The notes under the pieces are model-generated. The model saw nothing but the letters and a program-made list of their open reading frames with translations. It was not told the origin of the DNA and did no database searches. A stretch of DNA of 64,000 bases from Minisyncoccota bacterium (GTDB lineage Bacteria > Patescibacteriota > Minisyncoccia > Phycocordibacterales > UBA9973), in contig JBAZVG010000001.1 of the NCBI GenBank assembly GCA_041661005.1, positions 671,515 through 735,514 on the forward strand, in the 5' to 3' direction. Below are positions 4,451 to 58,417 of this stretch, piece by piece. Made by a program: the position numbers and the translations under genes. Each line of letters opens with the position of its first letter. Position 1 is the stretch's first letter.

Positions 4451-4724
4451 CTGAATTCTAATAAATGACTTGCTTTTTAAAATAATTCATGCTAAATTAT
4501 AGAAGTTACCAAGCTGGTTGCATACGCGTCAGCCCATGATAATGAAGATGCGAATTTAAAGTAGCTACCTTTGTTTCATAGGTCACTTAATCTTTAGTTG
4601 GATTAGTGAGAGGTGCCAAGCATAAGCTGGTATTTCCGGTCGATCTATTTTGGGAAAATCAGATTTGTGAGGTGCGTATGAGCGCACTTTTTTGCGTTGA
4701 TTATTAAAATAATATAAAAATAAT

Positions 4725-19986: not shown

Positions 19987-20532
19987 GTGTGTTATGTTCT
20001 TTGGAAACAACAGAAACCTGAAACTACCAAATTCATGAAAAAGACGATAGACAGATTACACAAGCAACTGGATGCTCACCAAGAGCAAGTTGCGGCGATT
20101 GTGTCAATGCAAGAGGTTCTTGCGGAATTCTCACGAAGTGGGAAATTACCCTCTGGTACCTCCTTTGAGGTCCATATTCAATGCTATAAGCCTGACCAGC
20201 GTTCGATCAGGACGTCGGCGGCTTCGGTGTGCCAGGCTTACGACGAAGCCGTTGCTCTGTGGAAAGAACACAATGCTAAACTCGGTGGTTGTGGCCGAGC
20301 AGAGCTTTTTGTCTGCACAGAAGCCTTGCTAGTTGCGGTATCCTGGGTGGACGCTGTACAAATTGCCAACAGTGAAAACACTGGCATGGTATTTTCTTCA
20401 ATACATTTTGGCGTTGACGACCGTTTGGTTGACGAGGTCTCCAAAACCGTCTGGAGGATAGGCGAGGAGTTGCCAGGCTGGCATGCAAACAAGTTTACCA
20501 AACACAAAACGGCAGAAGTTGTCACTGCTTGA
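19987..20532 (+). CDS. Hypothetical protein in a compositionally atypical (GC-rich, about 50%) segment
   Basis: By eye the GC content is much higher than the flanks. Both strands are densely covered by overlapping ORFs (20072-20332 +, 20238-20525 -, 20276-20488 -), as expected for high-GC DNA. A likely start is the ATG at 20035 (MKKTIDRL...). Confidence 0.45.
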   Translation: MCYVLWKQQKPETTKFMKKTIDRLHKQLDAHQEQVAAIVSMQEVLAEFSRSGKLPSGTSFEVHIQCYKPDQRSIRTSAASVCQAYDEAVALWKEHNAKLGGCGRAELFVCTEALLVAVSWVDAVQIANSENTGMVFSSIHFGVDDRLVDEVSKTVWRIGEELPGWHANKFTKHKTAEVVTA

Positions 20533-33837: not shown

Positions 33838-36471
33838 ATGAAAAAAATTATTTTGGTTGCGTTTGTTTTGTGGTTGGGTATTTCAGCGACAAGCGCTGAG
33901 GCAGGAACAAGTTCGGTGGTTGCTACTGTAAATATCTATAATGCAAGAATTGAATCTCAGAACGAAAATACTTTTAATATTTCTTTCGATCTTTCAAACC
34001 GTGAAGGTGTTCAGTCTGGAATCAAATATTCAACCGTTCTCACAAAACTTCCGAGTAACGAGATTGTTGATGAGCAGGTATATGACGAGACACTCTCATT
34101 AAGTGAAAACGAAACTGTTTCTAAAAATATTACATATACTCCCTCTACATCTTTATCTTCGGGTGTTTATACGCTTTGGATTCAAAGTAAAAACGATCGA
34201 GGTTTCTCATTTGCAATGGCCGATCTTGGGAATGTCACATTGACTTCGTCAAAATCACCGAAAGTTGAAATTCTGTCGGATACTTGTTACTTGACCATAG
34301 ACAACAAAAAACCTGTTGAAAAATATTCCCTTATTCAAGGGTTGAGTATTAATTATGCGGATGTTCTCGTTGCCACATGCAAGGTTTCCAGCACCTTTCC
34401 TGCAACGACTCATTATGTCCCAACATTTGAAACTTATTTCAGATCAACCTTTGGCGATAAAGCAAACCAGACGAGTGATCCGACTAACCTTCTTGCAATA
34501 CCAAAAGGAGTCTCTTCAATCTCCGTAGTTATTCCAAAAGCAACACAACCTCAATCCTATGAGACTAAATTTTATTTAACCGATTCTAACGGTTTGAATA
34601 AATCTAACGCGGTCAACATCAATTACGTTCTCAAAGGAATTAGTGGAACTATACAGAATGCTGTTTTTGACAAGGATGCATACATAAAGGGGGATACCGC
34701 GCGTTTGCAAATTTTTGCTACTTTTCCCGAAGGGAATCAAAAACTAGATGTTGTGATAACAGATCAGAAAGGCGATGAGTGCGGTTCATTTACGAAACAA
34801 GATCTAAAAAACGATGAACCAGTTGTTGATGTTTCTGTTGAAATAGAAAAGGATTGTGAAAATCCAATTGCGCAAGTAACTCTTTCCGGCATATTGGATG
34901 GAAACTCAGGTTTTCAAACTCTTGATTCAAGAGAATTTCAGACGTCATTGGATTCTGAGTCCGCGACTGTGGCCAAACCTGGAGTGATTATTTTAATTGT
35001 TGCTGGAATTCTGTTGATACTCGCGGTTTTATTTTTCTCGTATAGAAATAAAAGAATAATCAAGATCTCTGTTTTGTTTTTATTTTTTATTGGGATATCG
35101 ATTTTTGGAGATGTTAGGGAAGCCAAAGCTGACACAGTGACATATACTCCTGATCCGGATGTGGGTACTTTCATATTTACACTCAGCACAAATAAATCCA
35201 TATATGATGTAGGAGAAAGGGTCAGAGTTACTGGATCGGTGACTTTTTTGTTGGCGCCGAGTCGATCTTCATTTGAAGGTATAGCTGTCTCTCCATATAT
35301 AACGGCGACAATTGACAATGTGCCACCTGCCAGAAAATTTTGGCAAGATCCCTACGATATACATTTCATAAGAACGTTTGGTTCAGCATCTTTGACATTT
35401 AATAGAGCTTTATCAATTGGGAATCATCATGCTGTCTCTAATAATTTTGGCAGTGTTTTTTTTGACTCTTCACTATCGTATGGAACTATCTCTGTGCCTT
35501 TTGAAGTGAGCGCGCTTGTTCCTCCCGTTGTCACTATTCAAGCAACTCCAGCCACTGTGGAACTTCCCGCAAATGATTCTACATTACTAGAATGGTCTGC
35601 GACGAATGATCCGACAGAATGTACTGCGTCTGGTGATTGGAGTGGAGATAAAGATGTTTCAGGTTCACAGACTATTTCTGGTCTTACGGTTGGAGAATAT
35701 ACATATACTTTGGTTTGTTCAAATGCAAGCGGGTCAAGTGCTCCGAGTAGCGCGAATGTGACGGTAATAAATCCTTTACTAGACGATATGTCTGGTGTCT
35801 TGCTTGCTAATCCAGTTCACTGCGATGTTCTCGAAGGGCAAAGAAGTTGCTACACAGATCTTGCTTGGAATGTAACTAATCCTGAAATTGTGGGTGGATC
35901 TACCGTGACTAGTAATACTGATAACGATGGAAATGTTTCACATAATTTTAGTATTATTCCGCCTGTAAGCTCGGGCACCACAGACTCTGGGACAAAATCA
36001 AATGTCGCTGTTTCGCACACGGGCAGAACATTTTTCCTATACAATAACGGTCACGAATTTCCCCCAATTACGGTAACTGCAAGTTGTGCTCCGGGGGCTG
36101 ATTGGAATGCTGGTACTAAAACCTGCAAGGTTGGTGGCAATGGCAATGGTAACGGTAACTGTACCGACGGTATAAGAAATGGGGACGAGACAGGTGTTGA
36201 TATTGGTGGCCGTTGTGGTGGTGGTATTGGTAACGGTAACTGTACCGACGGTATAAGAAATGGGGACGAGACAGGTGTTGATATTGGTGGCCGTTGTGGT
36301 GGTGGTATTGATGCCAGGGGTGTCTGTTCTGATGATCATTCTCTTCCTTGTTCTTCTGGTAGGCCTAGTGAAATTTTAAGTAGTCCGAGTCTTTGGACGT
36401 GGACTTGTTCAGGGACAGACACATCTGAATTGTGCACAGAACCTAAAAGTCCTATCTTTATAGAAGATTAA
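33838..36471 (+). CDS. Large (877 aa) surface protein with signal peptide, internal TM pair, Ig-like regions, perfect 81-bp tandem duplication and C-terminal 'KSPIFIED'
   Basis: Signal peptide 'MKKIILVAFVLWLGISATSAEA'. Internal hydrophobic pair 'VIILIVAGILLILAVLFF...ISVLFLFFIGISIFG'. Two copies of the repeat 'GNGNCTDGIRNGDETGVDIGGRCGGGI'. Confidence 0.65.
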   Translation: MKKIILVAFVLWLGISATSAEAGTSSVVATVNIYNARIESQNENTFNISFDLSNREGVQSGIKYSTVLTKLPSNEIVDEQVYDETLSLSENETVSKNITYTPSTSLSSGVYTLWIQSKNDRGFSFAMADLGNVTLTSSKSPKVEILSDTCYLTIDNKKPVEKYSLIQGLSINYADVLVATCKVSSTFPATTHYVPTFETYFRSTFGDKANQTSDPTNLLAIPKGVSSISVVIPKATQPQSYETKFYLTDSNGLNKSNAVNINYVLKGISGTIQNAVFDKDAYIKGDTARLQIFATFPEGNQKLDVVITDQKGDECGSFTKQDLKNDEPVVDVSVEIEKDCENPIAQVTLSGILDGNSGFQTLDSREFQTSLDSESATVAKPGVIILIVAGILLILAVLFFSYRNKRIIKISVLFLFFIGISIFGDVREAKADTVTYTPDPDVGTFIFTLSTNKSIYDVGERVRVTGSVTFLLAPSRSSFEGIAVSPYITATIDNVPPARKFWQDPYDIHFIRTFGSASLTFNRALSIGNHHAVSNNFGSVFFDSSLSYGTISVPFEVSALVPPVVTIQATPATVELPANDSTLLEWSATNDPTECTASGDWSGDKDVSGSQTISGLTVGEYTYTLVCSNASGSSAPSSANVTVINPLLDDMSGVLLANPVHCDVLEGQRSCYTDLAWNVTNPEIVGGSTVTSNTDNDGNVSHNFSIIPPVSSGTTDSGTKSNVAVSHTGRTFFLYNNGHEFPPITVTASCAPGADWNAGTKTCKVGGNGNGNGNCTDGIRNGDETGVDIGGRCGGGIGNGNCTDGIRNGDETGVDIGGRCGGGIDARGVCSDDHSLPCSSGRPSEILSSPSLWTWTCSGTDTSELCTEPKSPIFIED
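36148..36309 (+). repeat. Perfect tandem duplication, 2 x 81 bp, in-frame within surface-protein gene
   Basis: Units 36148-36228 and 36229-36309 are identical base for base. Confidence 0.9.
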
Positions 36472-54892: not shown

Positions 54893-54944
54893 TTTATGCA
54901 CAGTTAGGCTTAAAGTAAACTTTCCGTGTGGTATAATATTTGTC

Positions 54945-56699
54945 ATGATTACTCCAGAACTTGTTTCCTTCCTTAAGCTTTCCAAAGAAAAAGGAGTTCC
55001 ATTTGAAACAACTAAGAACAATTTGCTTGGCGCTGGCTGGAATGAATCGGATATCAACCAAGCTCTCGCTACTATAGATGTTCCCGCTTCTGTTGCTCCC
55101 ATCTCTCCAATTTCAAATACTTCTCCTGTTGTTGCAGGAAATATTTCCAATTCTGGTTCTCTGCATTCAGGAATTATCGTAACCACCCATAAGAAGAATA
55201 AGTTTTTTCTGTCTCTAGTTATTTTTATTTTAGTGCTCTTATTGGGAGCGGGCGTTGTTTATTCCTACATACAGAAACTTGGTCCATTTGCAAAATTTGC
55301 AAATTTATATAGTGAAACCAACCTCTTGTCTGGCTTGCTAGACAAATCTTCACAAATTCGCACTTCTTCTTATGCCGTCTCAGCTTCTCTTGCCGTAGGG
55401 CCACGAGATTCTGATGCTCGACCTTTTACTCTCGCGCCTATTGCCATCTCTCCAGAGTCACCCAAGCCACTTTTTGCGACTTTGGGTGAGCAAGCTAAAT
55501 ATCTTCCAGAAGAATTCGGAGTCGATCTTACTTTCAGCGCAAAAACTGATTGGGAAACTGTTGATCTAGCTGATTGGGCTGTCAATTTAGATGCCAATGG
55601 AGATTTTGGGGATCTTGTTTATAAAGTGAATGTCGATGCTTTAAAGAAAGGCGAGGATTTTTATATAAAAATAAACAACATTCCCAGCATTCTCTTAAGC
55701 AGTTTTTCTAATCTTAAAGGTGAATGGATAAAAATAAGTCCAAAGAAAAAAGACGACAAATCTACTGGTAGCTATCAAAGCTATGATCCGTTTTCTTCTA
55801 TAACTGATTCATTTACAAGGAGCGAGAGTTCTTATAAAGAAAATCGAGCGAAATTTATGGAGTTACTTAAAAAAGCGGCTCAATTTGCCGATGAAGAAAA
55901 ATTAATTGGGTTTAAAAATAAACCAAAAAAAGAAACCATCAATGAGCGAGAGTTATATCGCTATGATTTAAAAATAAACCGAGACTCCATCGTTCCTTTT
56001 TATCAAAAATTAAGAACTGAAGCTGAACAGGTTCAAGAAGTTGGGGAAATTTTTGATGATAGTGGTTTGTTAGCATATCTCCAGACTAAAGAATTCAATG
56101 ATGTTTTTGACTACTATCAAGCTAACACCTTTCTCTCTATTTGGGTGGATGATAAAGGATTTCCAGCAATTATAAAATACACATTCCGTTTGGTTCCTCC
56201 GGACAGCGCCGAACAATTGAAAGACAAACAAGCTAATTTAGAATTCTCATTGAGTTTTTCAGATATAAACAAACCAGTAAATATTGAAATTCCAGTTGGA
56301 GCAAAAAACATAGAAGACATGCCGGCCTTCAAGACAGCCAGAAATAAAGGGACAAATGCCTCAATTAAAGCAAATTTATCAAATATGCGATCAGTGGCGG
56401 AAATTTATTATGATAAAAACAATTCTTATGGAGCTACAGTAAATAATAATTGCAATTCTGCTTCGAACACTTTATTTAGTGATAAAATTATGGCTGACAT
56501 TATAATAAACGTAAAAAAATCTATGGAAGAAGGCGGGGTAGAGCCTGTATCAGTTAGTTGTTACAGTAACAGAACCGCATGGGCGATCTCAGCTAAACTT
56601 ATAGATACTGAACAAGATAGTGGTTATTGGTGCGTGGATAGTAAAGGTTCTTACAAACTTGTCACAAAACCAATTTCTTCCGCTGTTTGTCCAAAATAA
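54945..56699 (+). CDS. Membrane-anchored hypothetical protein with type IV pilin-like C-terminal globular domain
   Basis: TM segment at about residue 95. The C-terminal 'ARNKGTNASIKANLSNMRSVAEIYYDKNNSY...C...C' resembles a pilin headgroup with a terminal disulfide pair. Confidence 0.45.
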   Translation: MITPELVSFLKLSKEKGVPFETTKNNLLGAGWNESDINQALATIDVPASVAPISPISNTSPVVAGNISNSGSLHSGIIVTTHKKNKFFLSLVIFILVLLLGAGVVYSYIQKLGPFAKFANLYSETNLLSGLLDKSSQIRTSSYAVSASLAVGPRDSDARPFTLAPIAISPESPKPLFATLGEQAKYLPEEFGVDLTFSAKTDWETVDLADWAVNLDANGDFGDLVYKVNVDALKKGEDFYIKINNIPSILLSSFSNLKGEWIKISPKKKDDKSTGSYQSYDPFSSITDSFTRSESSYKENRAKFMELLKKAAQFADEEKLIGFKNKPKKETINERELYRYDLKINRDSIVPFYQKLRTEAEQVQEVGEIFDDSGLLAYLQTKEFNDVFDYYQANTFLSIWVDDKGFPAIIKYTFRLVPPDSAEQLKDKQANLEFSLSFSDINKPVNIEIPVGAKNIEDMPAFKTARNKGTNASIKANLSNMRSVAEIYYDKNNSYGATVNNNCNSASNTLFSDKIMADIIINVKKSMEEGGVEPVSVSCYSNRTAWAISAKLIDTEQDSGYWCVDSKGSYKLVTKPISSAVCPK

Positions 56700-56724
56700 A
56701 AAATAATTTTCTTATTTATTAATT

Positions 56725-56756
56725 TAGCATTAACAAACGGTCGTACACTATTGCTG
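56725..56756. repeat. 32-nt direct repeat (copy 1) flanking PaaX-like gene
   Basis: 'tagcattaacaaacggtcgtacactattgctg'. Copy 2 at 57333-57364 differs at one position. Each copy is itself a hairpin (agcatta / taatgct). Confidence 0.9.
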
Positions 56757-56758
56757 TT

Positions 56759-57322
56759 TTAACGTAAATCAAATTTCTTCATTAAGTGTAGTTGATTATC
56801 TATCTTTTCAGCTAAAATAAAACGTACATGTTTTCTGGCGTCATAGAATTCTAAAATAAATTCAATTTCTTTGTTGCAAGGGTAGGGGAATACAAATACT
56901 GATTTCTGGAGTTCAATCAAGCCTATTTCTTTAAAATGCAAACGAAGAGAATCGCGCATTTTTCTTAATTTTTCTGGGATATCAAACATTACGACCCTCC
57001 ATTTTTTATCCCAATGAGCTAACTTCTTAATCTCTAAGTTGTCAATATTAAATCGCAGAGCTTTTTGTTTTCCATTCTCACTTAAAACCAGAGTAGTTGT
57101 GCCATCCTTGTGATGTTCTTCACTTACTAAATGCGAAGTGTATAAAGAATTGATTGCTCTTCGCAGGGCTTGACGATTCTCCCTTTCCCATTCTTTGGGT
57201 ATTTGTTTTAAAATCCACCAATGTTTTTTAGGTGATCTAGTTAAGCTCAGTGCAATACCTGCCAATAGAAGTAAAAGCACTTTCTTTTTTAGATTTCCCA
57301 TTCGCGGTGTATCGTGCTTCAT
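56759..57322 (-). CDS. PaaX_C-like domain protein with N-terminal TM segment
   Basis: 'HWDKKWRVVMFDIPEKLRKMRDSLRLHFKEIGLIELQKSVFVFP' matches the PaaX C-terminal pattern (W..W.lv.f.iPe..R..R..Lr..L...Gf..lq.svw..P). Confidence 0.55.
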   Translation of the reverse strand: MKHDTPRMGNLKKKVLLLLLAGIALSLTRSPKKHWWILKQIPKEWERENRQALRRAINSLYTSHLVSEEHHKDGTTTLVLSENGKQKALRFNIDNLEIKKLAHWDKKWRVVMFDIPEKLRKMRDSLRLHFKEIGLIELQKSVFVFPYPCNKEIEFILEFYDARKHVRFILAEKIDNQLHLMKKFDLR

Positions 57323-57332
57323 CTATGCATTA

Positions 57333-57364
57333 TAGCATTAACAAACGGTCGTACACTAATGCTG
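57333..57364. repeat. 32-nt direct repeat (copy 2) flanking PaaX-like gene
   Basis: 'tagcattaacaaacggtcgtacactaatgctg'. Confidence 0.9.
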
Positions 57365-57417
57365 AGGTGTATAAATTTGTTTTTCAGACGGAAAGATATA
57401 TAATAAATAACAATAAA

Positions 57418-57918
57418 ATGAGAATTCCAATTGTAAATGAACAAGACGAGATTATAAAAATTATTGATTCAACTGATAGACAGAAATCTGATATTTGTCG
57501 GGTTTCTGCTCTTTGGGTTACAGATAGGGACGGTAATGTATTACTTGCACAACGATCTTTTAGTAAAAAATTCAGTCCTGGACTTTGGGGTCCAGCAGTT
57601 GCAGGGACACTAGAAGAAGGAGAAACTTATGAATCAAATATTTTGAAAGAAGCTCAGGAAGAAATTAATCTTGTTGGCATAAAGCCAAATAAAGAAAACA
57701 AAACACGCATGTCCACTACTCATGAATATTTTTGTCAGTGGTTTAGCGTGGTGGTTGATGGTGGATATCCTTTTGTAAAACAGGATTCCGAAGTAGAAAA
57801 AGTTAAATGGTTTACAAAGGAGGAATTGCTGAAATTGTTTGCTGATAAACCAGAAATATTTGTACAGAGTTTCAAATATTTAGTAAATTATTTTATAAAA
57901 CATGCAAATCAAAGTTAA
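57418..57918 (+). CDS. NUDIX hydrolase
   Basis: Nudix box 'GTLEEGETYESNILKEAQEEINL'. The start was refined to the ATG at 57418; the upstream part of the ORF-caller frame reads through repeat copy 2. Confidence 0.75.
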   Translation: MRIPIVNEQDEIIKIIDSTDRQKSDICRVSALWVTDRDGNVLLAQRSFSKKFSPGLWGPAVAGTLEEGETYESNILKEAQEEINLVGIKPNKENKTRMSTTHEYFCQWFSVVVDGGYPFVKQDSEVEKVKWFTKEELLKLFADKPEIFVQSFKYLVNYFIKHANQS

Positions 57919-58324
57919 AAAACTTAAAGAGGGAGCGAAGTTGCCGAAGTATCATCATCCGGGAGATGTGGGGATGGATCTGTATTCGATGGAGACGGTG
58001 ACGGTAAAGCCGGGCGAGCATTATCGTTTTTGGCATGGTTTTGCGCTGGAATTTCCCGAAGGGTATGGGGCTATTATTATGGATAAAGGGAGTATTTCCA
58101 AAGCTGGCTTTGTCCACATGGGCGGGGTGTATGATCCAGGATACAGAGGTGAATACAACACACTTTTAGTAAATTTGTCTGATAAAGCGTATACTTTCGA
58201 GGAAGGTGATAAAGTTTCTCAGCTTGTGATCGTGCCTGTCGTTATCGCAAAGTTAAAAGAGGTTGATAAGTTGAATGAATCTGCGCGTGGTGAAGGAAGG
58301 TTTGGAAGCACAGGTAAAAAATAG
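57902..58324 (+). CDS. dut: dUTP diphosphatase
   Basis: 'GDVGMDLYS' and 'GVYDPGYRGE' motifs. Confidence 0.9.
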   Translation: MQIKVKKLKEGAKLPKYHHPGDVGMDLYSMETVTVKPGEHYRFWHGFALEFPEGYGAIIMDKGSISKAGFVHMGGVYDPGYRGEYNTLLVNLSDKAYTFEEGDKVSQLVIVPVVIAKLKEVDKLNESARGEGRFGSTGKK

Positions 58325-58325
58325 T

Positions 58326-58417
58326 GCGAAGTTTTTGTAAAATTTCTTGAAACTGCGCCCTCGAGGTCATAAGGACAGGGAACCCACACGTTTCTTAAAA
58401 TTTTGCAAAAACTTCGC
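58326..58417. repeat. Long hairpin element: ~28-bp AT-rich inverted repeat around a 36-nt GC-rich core, between dut and argS
   Basis: Left arm 'gcgaagtttttgtaaaatttcttgaaac'; right arm reverse complement 'gcgaagtttttgcaaaattttaagaaac'. The core 'tgcgccctcgaggtcataaggacagggaacccacac' contains the palindrome cctcgagg. Confidence 0.8.

Follow-up and report, generated by a model that had tools for sequence, protein, structure and literature searches.

PaaX, the closest described relative of the protein treated here, is a repressor consisting of a winged helix-turn-helix (wHTH) and a dimerisation domain, which binds the sequence TGATTC-N27-GAATCA and keeps RNA polymerase away from Px, its own promoter, which it thereby represses (PMC9493321). 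We analysed a 64,000-nt stretch of DNA from a Minisyncoccota bacterium (contig JBAZVG010000001.1, positions 671,515 to 735,514; the whole of this stretch is called the window below), in which the gene of a 187-aa protein, here named mini-PaaX, is bracketed by two nearly identical 32-nt palindromes. In our judgement this unit of about 640 bp is best explained as a self-contained, self-repressing gene with paired cognate palindromes, an explanation that we hold to be reasonably probable.

Looping repressors and REP/RAYT pairs offer further points of comparison. The LacI (O1/O2), GalR (OE/OI) and DeoR systems have a second operator several hundred bp downstream of the promoter-proximal one, which is the likeness to the two sites described here; in contrast, the auxiliary operators of those systems are situated within or ahead of the genes they regulate and not after the repressor's own stop codon, and the copies are not kept identical. 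RAYTs are relatives of HUH/Y1 transposases, and repetitive extragenic palindromic (REP) sequences are scattered in tens to hundreds of copies. REP/RAYT systems (REPtrons) resemble the present unit in being vertically inherited single-copy genes flanked by cognate palindromes, with paralogues that have different palindromes; however, mini-PaaX is unrelated to RAYTs and is not an HUH enzyme, and free palindromes numbered zero in the 64 kb of the window and one, a solo site, in about 1 Mb of related loci. These two comparisons, as well as that with insertion sequences (see below), each fail on at least one defining feature. In the literature on PaaX-like and Cas2-like proteins and on taxa of the candidate phyla radiation (CPR) we found no description of the mini-PaaX family or of the paired-palindrome layout.

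Residues 102-175 of mini-PaaX matched the Pfam family PF20803 PaaX_M ("PaaX protein central Cas2-like domain") with 80.1 bits against a cut-off of 24 (E = 1.3e-22). No Pfam match to PaaX_C was obtained even at E <= 1, and the chain ends at residue 187, so that the PaaX_C-like domain assigned to the protein in a preliminary description of this DNA has to be replaced by PaaX_M. The PaaX equivalog model TIGR02277 of NCBIfam was matched over positions 35-152 of its 279 with 22.2 bits, compared to a cut-off of 264.55. Two Cas2 models also stayed below their cut-offs (TIGR01573, 24.3 vs 24.5 bits; PF09827, 15.9 vs 23.8 bits) and covered residues 108-144 only. Searches with Pfam and NCBIfam returned no integrase, transposase or HUH domain in the protein; taken together with the fold comparison below, they leave it with wHTH and Cas2-like domains only.

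The profile of the close family found no solved structure by sequence. An AlphaFold2 model built from 82 diverse representatives reached a predicted local distance difference test (pLDDT) value of 90.7, with helices at residues 10-27, 31-47 and 50-62 and a beta-hairpin at 66-80; a run on 28 close sequences gave a pLDDT of 45 and was discarded in favour of the 82-representative profile. The best Foldseek match to the model was the E. coli PaaX crystal structure 8a39 (E = 8.9e-4, 143 columns aligned), followed by many Cas2 structures, several of them at probability 1.0, and by the PaaX-like structures 3kfw and 3l09. Profile comparison gave weak matches (E 0.03-0.9) to wHTH regulators of the MarR/SlyA/QsrR type. 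The hydrophobic stretch, taken at first for an N-terminal transmembrane segment, is helix 1 of the winged-helix domain according to the model, the Foldseek matches and the profile matches, and aligns with helix 1 of MarR/QsrR-type regulators. Four residues (D114, W104, R123 and S141) were invariant across the 82 diverse family members, and D114 aligns with the conserved Asp of the Cas2 strand-1 motif (YDV in 3exc, FDL in 6jhz).

Mini-PaaX thus combines a wHTH with a Cas2-like module and has no effector-binding domain at its C-terminus. It shares with PaaX (8a39, 3l09) the order of an N-terminal winged helix followed by a Cas2-like central domain, and it resembles PaaX in a long-spacer inverted repeat at its own promoter (PMC9493321), here AGCATTA-N16-TAATGCT, which overlaps its own -10 box and is a predicted binding site. 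It differs from PaaX in having about 60% of the length (187 aa vs 316 in 8a39), no PaaX_C domain and no evident ligand switch, in falling far short of the equivalog cut-off, and in its multi-copy occurrence, its putatively leaderless promoter and the second site after its stop codon. No paa genes were seen in any locus; the neighbours were genes for NUDIX, dUTPase, ArgRS, thymidylate kinase, SHMT, DnaE, Pth, PilB-like and DapF proteins. The resemblance to Cas2, which the preliminary description had noted, is real, since Pfam itself names PaaX_M Cas2-like and Foldseek reached probability 1.0 with Cas2 structures; to Cas2 and the Cas2/VapD superfamily the protein is further linked by the strand-1 motif ending in the invariant Asp and by a Q-x-S-V-F motif. 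Unlike Cas2, it is fused to a wHTH domain, stays under the cut-off of the Cas2 models and has neither array nor leader, its repeats lying 608 nt apart and enclosing the gene. No CRISPR-like tandem array was present in the window, and no cas1 was found among the flanking housekeeping genes, the whole window not having been searched for it. Mini-PaaX is therefore Cas2-like in fold, but not a CRISPR component.

The family comprised 287 close clusters, 2513 clusters in a profile search and 2092 representatives at 50% identity and E <= 1e-10; among the best 150 representatives listed, those that look full-length were nearly all 180-200 aa long. Every match with a named source came from Patescibacteria (CPR) genomes or metagenome contigs, where automated annotation calls the genes 'hypothetical', 'PaaX' or 'CRISPR-associated'. 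From 2 to at least 5 diverged copies were present in several of the Paceibacteria genomes sampled, with genome-mates being 71-83% identical and no copies near-identical within a genome. A second member, 80% identical to mini-PaaX, was found elsewhere on the contig of the window, and exact-sequence look-up of the window protein and of the paralogue P0042 on the same contig returned no record. Among contigs whose ArgRS proteins were 67-79% identical the mini-PaaX proteins were 59-84% identical, indicating strong purifying selection on a protein at least as conserved as ArgRS.

Paired palindromes and the predicted promoter

The two 32-mers that flank the mini-PaaX gene (Table 1) were identical at 31 of 32 positions and had the same orientation, as expected from the preliminary description, which had correctly placed these direct repeats right beyond the stop and start codons of the open reading frame (ORF). 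It had also given each repeat the fold agcatta-N16-taatgct; this holds for the copy at 57333, which has the perfect AGCATTA/TAATGCT outer stem, but the copy at 56725 has one mismatch in the stem. No other match with up to three mismatches occurred in the window, and 100 dinucleotide shuffles gave none. A covariance model built from 67 homologous sites recovered the same two sites, both on the minus strand (downstream copy at 56722-56758, 51.3 bits, E = 6.9e-10; upstream copy at 57330-57366, 54.8 bits, E = 9.4e-11), and the next match in the window had an E value of 0.25. A 17-nt core match with three mismatches at 20413-20429 was not recovered by the covariance model and was treated as chance. 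At gathering thresholds, Rfam recognised one tRNA only in the window.

Outside the window the motif followed the gene. In 33 close loci (about 330 kb) the covariance model found the two flanking sites per locus only, and in 716 kb of contigs anchored on ArgRS it found two sites per intact unit, one solo site (L129) and one site beside a gene disrupted by an insertion sequence. Strict palindromes with a family-type centre, counted in the first 80 loci, lay within 200 nt of a family gene in 91 of 97 cases, and one of the six others (L046) was a more distant downstream copy. The search for further copies of the 32-mer that had been proposed as a check therefore gave the two in 64 kb and a motif that in relatives nearly always adjoins family genes. 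Family-type palindromes away from a mini-PaaX gene were noted in distant loci (L066:6671-6712, L074:217-254, L034:343-402, L032:8335-8378): the L066 palindrome directly follows the UvrB stop codon, another precedes a LAGLIDADG-like ORF by 90 nt, a third is located 72 nt ahead of a large ATPase gene, and the remaining one precedes yebC and matches the palindrome of the paralogue L064 in the same genome. These may represent solo scars, targets of cross-regulation, or the ends of units that continue outside the DNA fetched.

The flanks of 80 homologous loci fetched from reference genomes were read. In the loci shown whose proteins were 70-87% identical, the same palindrome of about 32-37 nt stood on both sides, before the ATG and at the stop codon, which it sometimes overlapped. 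Homologues with 43-60% identity had the same two-sided layout with other arms and with longer, often perfect palindromes centred on GC(T/G)AT(A/C)GC, CGRYCG or GCGATCGC. The downstream palindrome followed the stop codon in the close loci shown and in most distant ones. Even a subfamily of 159 aa with 31% identity (L087:2445-2924, L138:3252-3831), which sits between SHMT/NUDIX and thymidylate kinase, was flanked by two palindromes, here centred on GCCATGGC; a matching centre variant, CGCCATGAC, was also present in one close locus (L018). All homologue loci that could be read, with identities from 87% down to 31%, had a cognate palindrome on either side of the gene; the two-sided layout is a property of the whole protein family. 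In distant loci (for example L032:4595-4654, L055:4431-4484, L056:2328-2393, L067:3881-3934 and 4584-4639) the palindromes reach outward by 5-16 extra bp; these extensions are unlike between the upstream and downstream copy, each is self-complementary, and on the sense strand the left arm looks C/T-rich and the right arm G/A-rich.

Within a locus the upstream and downstream copies have evolved together. Their mean identity was 0.91, compared to 0.49 between loci of the distant set and 0.77 between those of the close set, and although the distance of the downstream copy to the stop codon varied from 0 to 110 nt, its sequence followed that of the upstream copy. The downstream copies of L001 and L019 were chimeric, with a new left arm and the old right arm. 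The loci L042 and L055 encode proteins that are 79% identical and have palindromes that match at 32 of 32 positions, indicating that the arms are constrained in sequence and not in symmetry alone. No simple code relating the predicted third helix of the wHTH to the arms emerged: L037 and L039 have identical residues in this helix and proteins with 76% identity, but palindromes with only 44%. An N-terminus reading GTTQRK co-occurred with the arm variant TTTGCT at two of the chromosomal positions introduced below (A and C), which linkage alone could explain.

The upstream copy overlaps a candidate promoter. The first five bases (TGCTA) of the window's putative extended -10 element are the 3' end of the upstream palindrome, and when the 33 close loci are lined up at their ATG, TGCTATAAT occupies positions -15 to -7, with its bases conserved to 73-91%. 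Most distant homologues had TATACT, TATAAT, TACAAT or TAAAAT 5-9 nt before the ATG. The palindrome centre was 28 nt away from the ATG in the window; most close loci had a distance of 27-29 nt, and the values for distant loci fell mostly at 27-30 or 46-51 nt, many of them near 47 nt. Because the -10 box ends so close to the ATG, the mini-PaaX mRNA should be leaderless. A generic scan for promoters and terminators did not report the extended -10 box, since no -35 hexamer is present, and did not score the palindromes as terminators.

From this geometry, and by homology with PaaX, we infer that the upstream copy is a self-repression site at the protein's own promoter. The two 32-mers would be paired recognition sites of the protein encoded between them, and a dimer bound at the upstream site would block RNA polymerase, allowing the protein to hold its own level constant. 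The Cas2-like domain would correspond to the dimerisation module of PaaX, with the ligand-binding C-terminal domain missing from mini-PaaX. The downstream copy would be a second site for mini-PaaX and could act as an auxiliary looping operator, as a roadblock that insulates the compact unit from its convergent neighbour, or as an RNA 3' end, its transcript forming the 3' hairpin of the mini-PaaX mRNA. Palindrome, promoter, gene and second palindrome would make up a self-contained block that is lost, and somehow gained, as a whole.

Presence and absence of the unit

In the close set, which consists of Nomurabacteria-level genomes, the unit occupied four conserved positions among housekeeping genes. 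At position A, that of the window, NUDIX, dUTPase and ArgRS lie on the upstream side and thymidylate kinase on the downstream side; position B lies between DnaE (upstream) and Pth, position C between a PilB-like ATPase (upstream) and DapF, and position D follows an ACT-domain protein and has a variable downstream side, with RuvB and RuvC further downstream. Protein similarity did not follow chromosomal position: the nearest protein neighbour shared the position in 12 of 31 cases, compared to 13.6 expected by permutation, and mean protein identity was 0.736 within and 0.764 between positions. Diagnostic subtypes, such as that with the GTTQRK N-terminus and the TTTGCT arm variant, were likewise shared by positions A and C.

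Position A was studied in 80 metagenome contigs anchored on ArgRS (loci L081-L160). The unit was present in 12 of them, 49 had an empty site, one had a copy disrupted by an insertion sequence (L082) and one a solo palindrome (L129). The presence/absence comparison proposed in the preliminary description, which looked for a single repeat copy at the empty site, thus gave one such contig, and 49 of the 50 contigs lacking the unit had no palindrome at position A. At the empty sites the stop codon of thymidylate kinase (Tmk) abuts or overlaps the start of NUDIX or dUTPase, forming a compact junction. Unit presence was scattered over the ArgRS tree. Among unit-bearing contigs the identity of ArgRS and that of the unit protein correlated weakly, with a rho of 0.26 (p = 0.08) over a narrow range. 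The solo palindrome of L129 lies between an AAA-type kinase gene and dUTPase. This contig is the sister of the unit-bearing L096 on the ArgRS tree and equals L096 minus the gene and one palindrome: to the left, the two contigs align as far as the downstream copy of L096, and to the right, the alignment resumes at its upstream copy. In L082 (contig Ga0209542_10040605) an IS3-type element with a 94-aa orfA and a 275-aa rve-like orfB is inserted in the mini-PaaX gene at 1294-2410, leaving about the first 26 codons and the upstream palindrome, so that a natural knock-out of the gene is possible.

In its presence and absence the unit acts as one discrete block, and recombination between the direct repeats appears to have produced the solo site. 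These observations bear on the idea of a small selfish element that has the palindromes as its ends or recombination sites, in which the wHTH/Cas2-like protein or a recruited host enzyme would cut or pair the palindromes, so that the gene and one palindrome are excised and can re-enter elsewhere. Such a self-mobilising or recombination-driven cassette would account for the patchy presence at one site on the ArgRS tree, for the flanks of the solo site, for the occurrence at no fewer than four chromosomal positions irrespective of protein similarity and for the chimeric sites. The empty sites are intact operon junctions, which are hard to obtain by repeated deletion, conserved sequence stops at the palindromes or about 12 nt past the upstream copy, and the invariance of D114, the Asp of Cas2 strand 1, also favours it. 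However, the protein has no domain of a known mobility enzyme among those searched for, no target-site duplication was found outside the palindromes in the window, in the close loci or in the comparison of L096 with L129, and the empty sites offer no palindrome with which a unit could recombine. Within genomes near-identical copies are missing, purifying selection is at least as strong as on ArgRS, and tblastn searches of phages and plasmids, a scan of IMG/VR and a comparison with PHROGs gave no relatives of the family, while PADLOC gave weak Cas2 matches only. Ordinary slippage between the 32-bp repeats together with homologous exchange of whole alleles would be a sufficient, though unproven, explanation of the solo site and the patchiness.

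The comparison with known mobile elements has the same two sides. Like insertion sequences, the unit is compact, has similar ends, of which the upstream one lies over the promoter, shows presence/absence polymorphism and occurs at several positions; it differs from them in lacking a DDE, HUH or serine/tyrosine recombinase, target duplications and identical copies, and in its synteny-conserved positions and purifying selection. From integron cassettes it differs in having the same site on both sides of the gene, and no integrase was found among the neighbour proteins scanned with Pfam, which were a part of those in the 160 loci. Of the suggestion in the preliminary description that the geometry is that of a mobile cassette or a recombination-site pair, the gene-specific bracketing and the discrete block were retained, whereas a recombinase, a target duplication and a link to phages or plasmids were not found, and on this evidence we consider a cassette of this kind unlikely. 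For the self-repressing unit, recombination between its two direct repeats would leave a solo palindrome, as in L129.

Hairpin signal in the palindromes

The palindromes also carry a signal of RNA structure. In the close set 87.6% of the cells at the inner arm positions were paired, 8 of 13 pairs showed double changes, and none of 500 shuffles reached the score; slid alignments, used as control for helix covariation, scored far lower. Intermediates on the gene-sense strand were of the G.U type in 94 cells and of the A.C type in 6. With RNA parameters the sense strand folded better in 53 of 64 untied comparisons from 67 sites (Wilcoxon p = 1.5e-7), whereas DNA parameters gave no difference. These hairpin counts are not phylogenetically independent; seven positions agree in direction. 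Thus the palindromes probably matter as sense-strand RNA hairpins as well, in a dual role. The upstream copy would then lie at the 3' end of the upstream gene wherever that gene is co-directional, which is the case at three of the four chromosomal positions.

This signal has to be counted against the self-repressing unit, together with several other points. Helix-like covariation, the G.U bias and a strand asymmetry seen with RNA parameters only all point to an RNA hairpin, for which a pure double-stranded operator model has no need. An autoregulator whose own stop codon is always followed by a second site has no precedent known to us. The identical third helices of L037 and L039, with their differing arms, make direct read-out of the whole arm uncertain. 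Besides the gene-flanking palindromes no other target sites were seen, and binding by mini-PaaX is itself a prediction.

The palindromes might instead be RNA elements only, hairpins of the sense strand that act as terminator or stabiliser at the 3' ends of the mini-PaaX mRNA and of the upstream gene's mRNA, and that may be bound by the RRM-like Cas2 domain, with no function as DNA operators. The covariation, the excess of G.U-type intermediates, the RNA-specific strand asymmetry and the co-directional upstream genes favour this, as do distant family-type palindromes that follow unrelated genes, such as that after UvrB in L066, with the reservation on phylogenetic independence made above. In the window, however, the upstream neighbour is divergent and the upstream copy precedes the predicted leaderless start, which would place it outside the gene's own mRNA, and the spacing between this copy and the promoter is fixed. 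The hairpins lack a U-tract behind them and were not scored as terminators, whereas ordinary hairpins with a stem and T-run are present in other parts of the window. On the gene-sense strand the two copies in the window form weak hairpins (-7.1 and -3.2 kcal/mol), and the fold z-score was significant solely for the plus strand of the upstream copy with its flanks. The conservation of the arm sequences, exemplified by L042 and L055, and their identity between copies go beyond what pairing requires. We therefore regard a role as RNA elements alone as improbable.

The strand-specific hairpin signal, taken with the patchy presence, the compact empty sites, the solo palindrome and the missing link between sequence and position, also led us to a bolder version of the cassette, an autonomous gene cassette of the CPR, of a kind not recognised before, in which a Cas2-like/winged-helix protein would recognise the palindromes on either side of its gene and promote excision, exchange or insertion of the block independently of Cas1. 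The protein may act through the palindrome folded as a hairpin or cruciform and through the invariant Cas2-type Asp, and self-repression at the upstream end may keep the unit quiescent. This, too, we find improbable.

Finally, a generic intergenic (REP-like) repeat or a remnant CRISPR-like pair lying beside the gene by accident deserves hardly any credence: the repeats do resemble those of REP or CRISPR type in being palindromic and about 32 nt long, a Cas2-like domain is encoded between them and the annotation in one source calls the protein CRISPR-associated, but there are just two copies in the window with no array, no free-standing copies in the 330 kb and 716 kb of related DNA save one solo site, a 608-nt spacing that encloses the gene, housekeeping genes as neighbours and a Cas2 model that stays just under its cut-off over a short segment, and the distribution of the motif rules the generic-repeat reading out.

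Neighbourhood of the locus and wider meaning

Table 1. Positions of the mini-PaaX unit and of the putative promoter elements around it in the window
Feature	Position	Strand	Remarks
mini-PaaX gene, 187 aa	56759..57322	-	stop codon included; winged helix at residues ~10-94, Cas2-like ferredoxin fold at ~102-183
Downstream palindrome copy	56725..56756	-	gene-sense CAGCAATAGTGTACGACCGTTTGTTAATGCTA; begins 2 nt past the stop codon
Upstream palindrome copy	57333..57364	-	gene-sense CAGCATTAGTGTACGACCGTTTGTTAATGCTA; edge 10 nt beyond the start codon
Extended -10 element, TGCTATAAT	57329..57337	-	last T 6 nt before the ATG; putative promoter function
TATAAT-like box	57399..57404	+	within the conserved GAAAGATATATAAT, 13 nt before the NUDIX ATG 57418; putative function

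The upstream palindrome lies in a divergent intergenic region shared with the NUDIX gene. As the preliminary description had observed, the N-terminus given to NUDIX by the ORF caller runs through this repeat: the 222-aa ORF starts at GTG 57250, and its extension (57250-57417, plus strand) shares sequence with the 5' end of mini-PaaX and with the palindrome. Judged by its sequence, the real NUDIX start is ATG 57418 (MRIP...), because it is the 166-aa form that the domain fits and because relatives conserve ATGAGAATT as their start. The segment GAAAGATATATAAT was present in the unit-bearing contigs and in L129 and missing from empty sites, and its TATAAT-like box may be an outward-facing promoter of NUDIX-dUTPase-ArgRS that the unit brings along. 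In L096 a remnant of the NUDIX start, ATGAGAATTTAA (M-R-I-stop), stands at 4550-4565 just before dUTPase, the NUDIX gene having been deleted there.

The stretch from thymidylate kinase to ArgRS (in loci L081-L160; about 54900-58400 in the window) is a hotspot of gene-content variation, where most combinations of an AAA-type kinase, the mini-PaaX unit and NUDIX were found. The dUTPase is of one of two alternating types, which share 82-92% or 44-51% identity with that of the window, and a 584-aa pilin-like protein (54945-56699) was seen at the hotspot in the window only. The gap between dUTPase and ArgRS contains a 92-nt hairpin on the plus strand (58326-58417) just before the ArgRS start, with perfect-looking 28-nt arms, a folding energy of -35.8 kcal/mol and a z-score of -4.9; none of 200 shuffles folded as well, and Rfam gave no match at the gathering score. 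It may be a leader or regulatory RNA of ArgRS, although it is not universal, since in many relatives dUTPase and ArgRS are separated by no more than about 10 nt. Elsewhere in the window, an 81-nt unit is perfectly duplicated in tandem at 36147-36310 (2.0 copies, 100% match).

The genomes of the CPR (Patescibacteria) are tiny, and to our knowledge no CPR transcription factor has been characterised experimentally. The mini-PaaX family numbers over 2,000 clusters at 50% identity (E <= 1e-10), with up to five diverged copies per sampled genome, and gene callers extend the neighbouring NUDIX ORF through the palindrome. Each mini-PaaX gene comes with its own palindrome and thereby forms a testable protein-site pair, while the palindromes, which differ between paralogues, form a natural series in which changes of specificity can be studied. 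Should the second site work by looping or as a roadblock, the unit would be an unusual design, a fully insulated and self-limiting gene. If the unit moves by its own means, a Cas2-like domain would be linked to DNA mobility without Cas1, which would bear on the origins of CRISPR adaptation.

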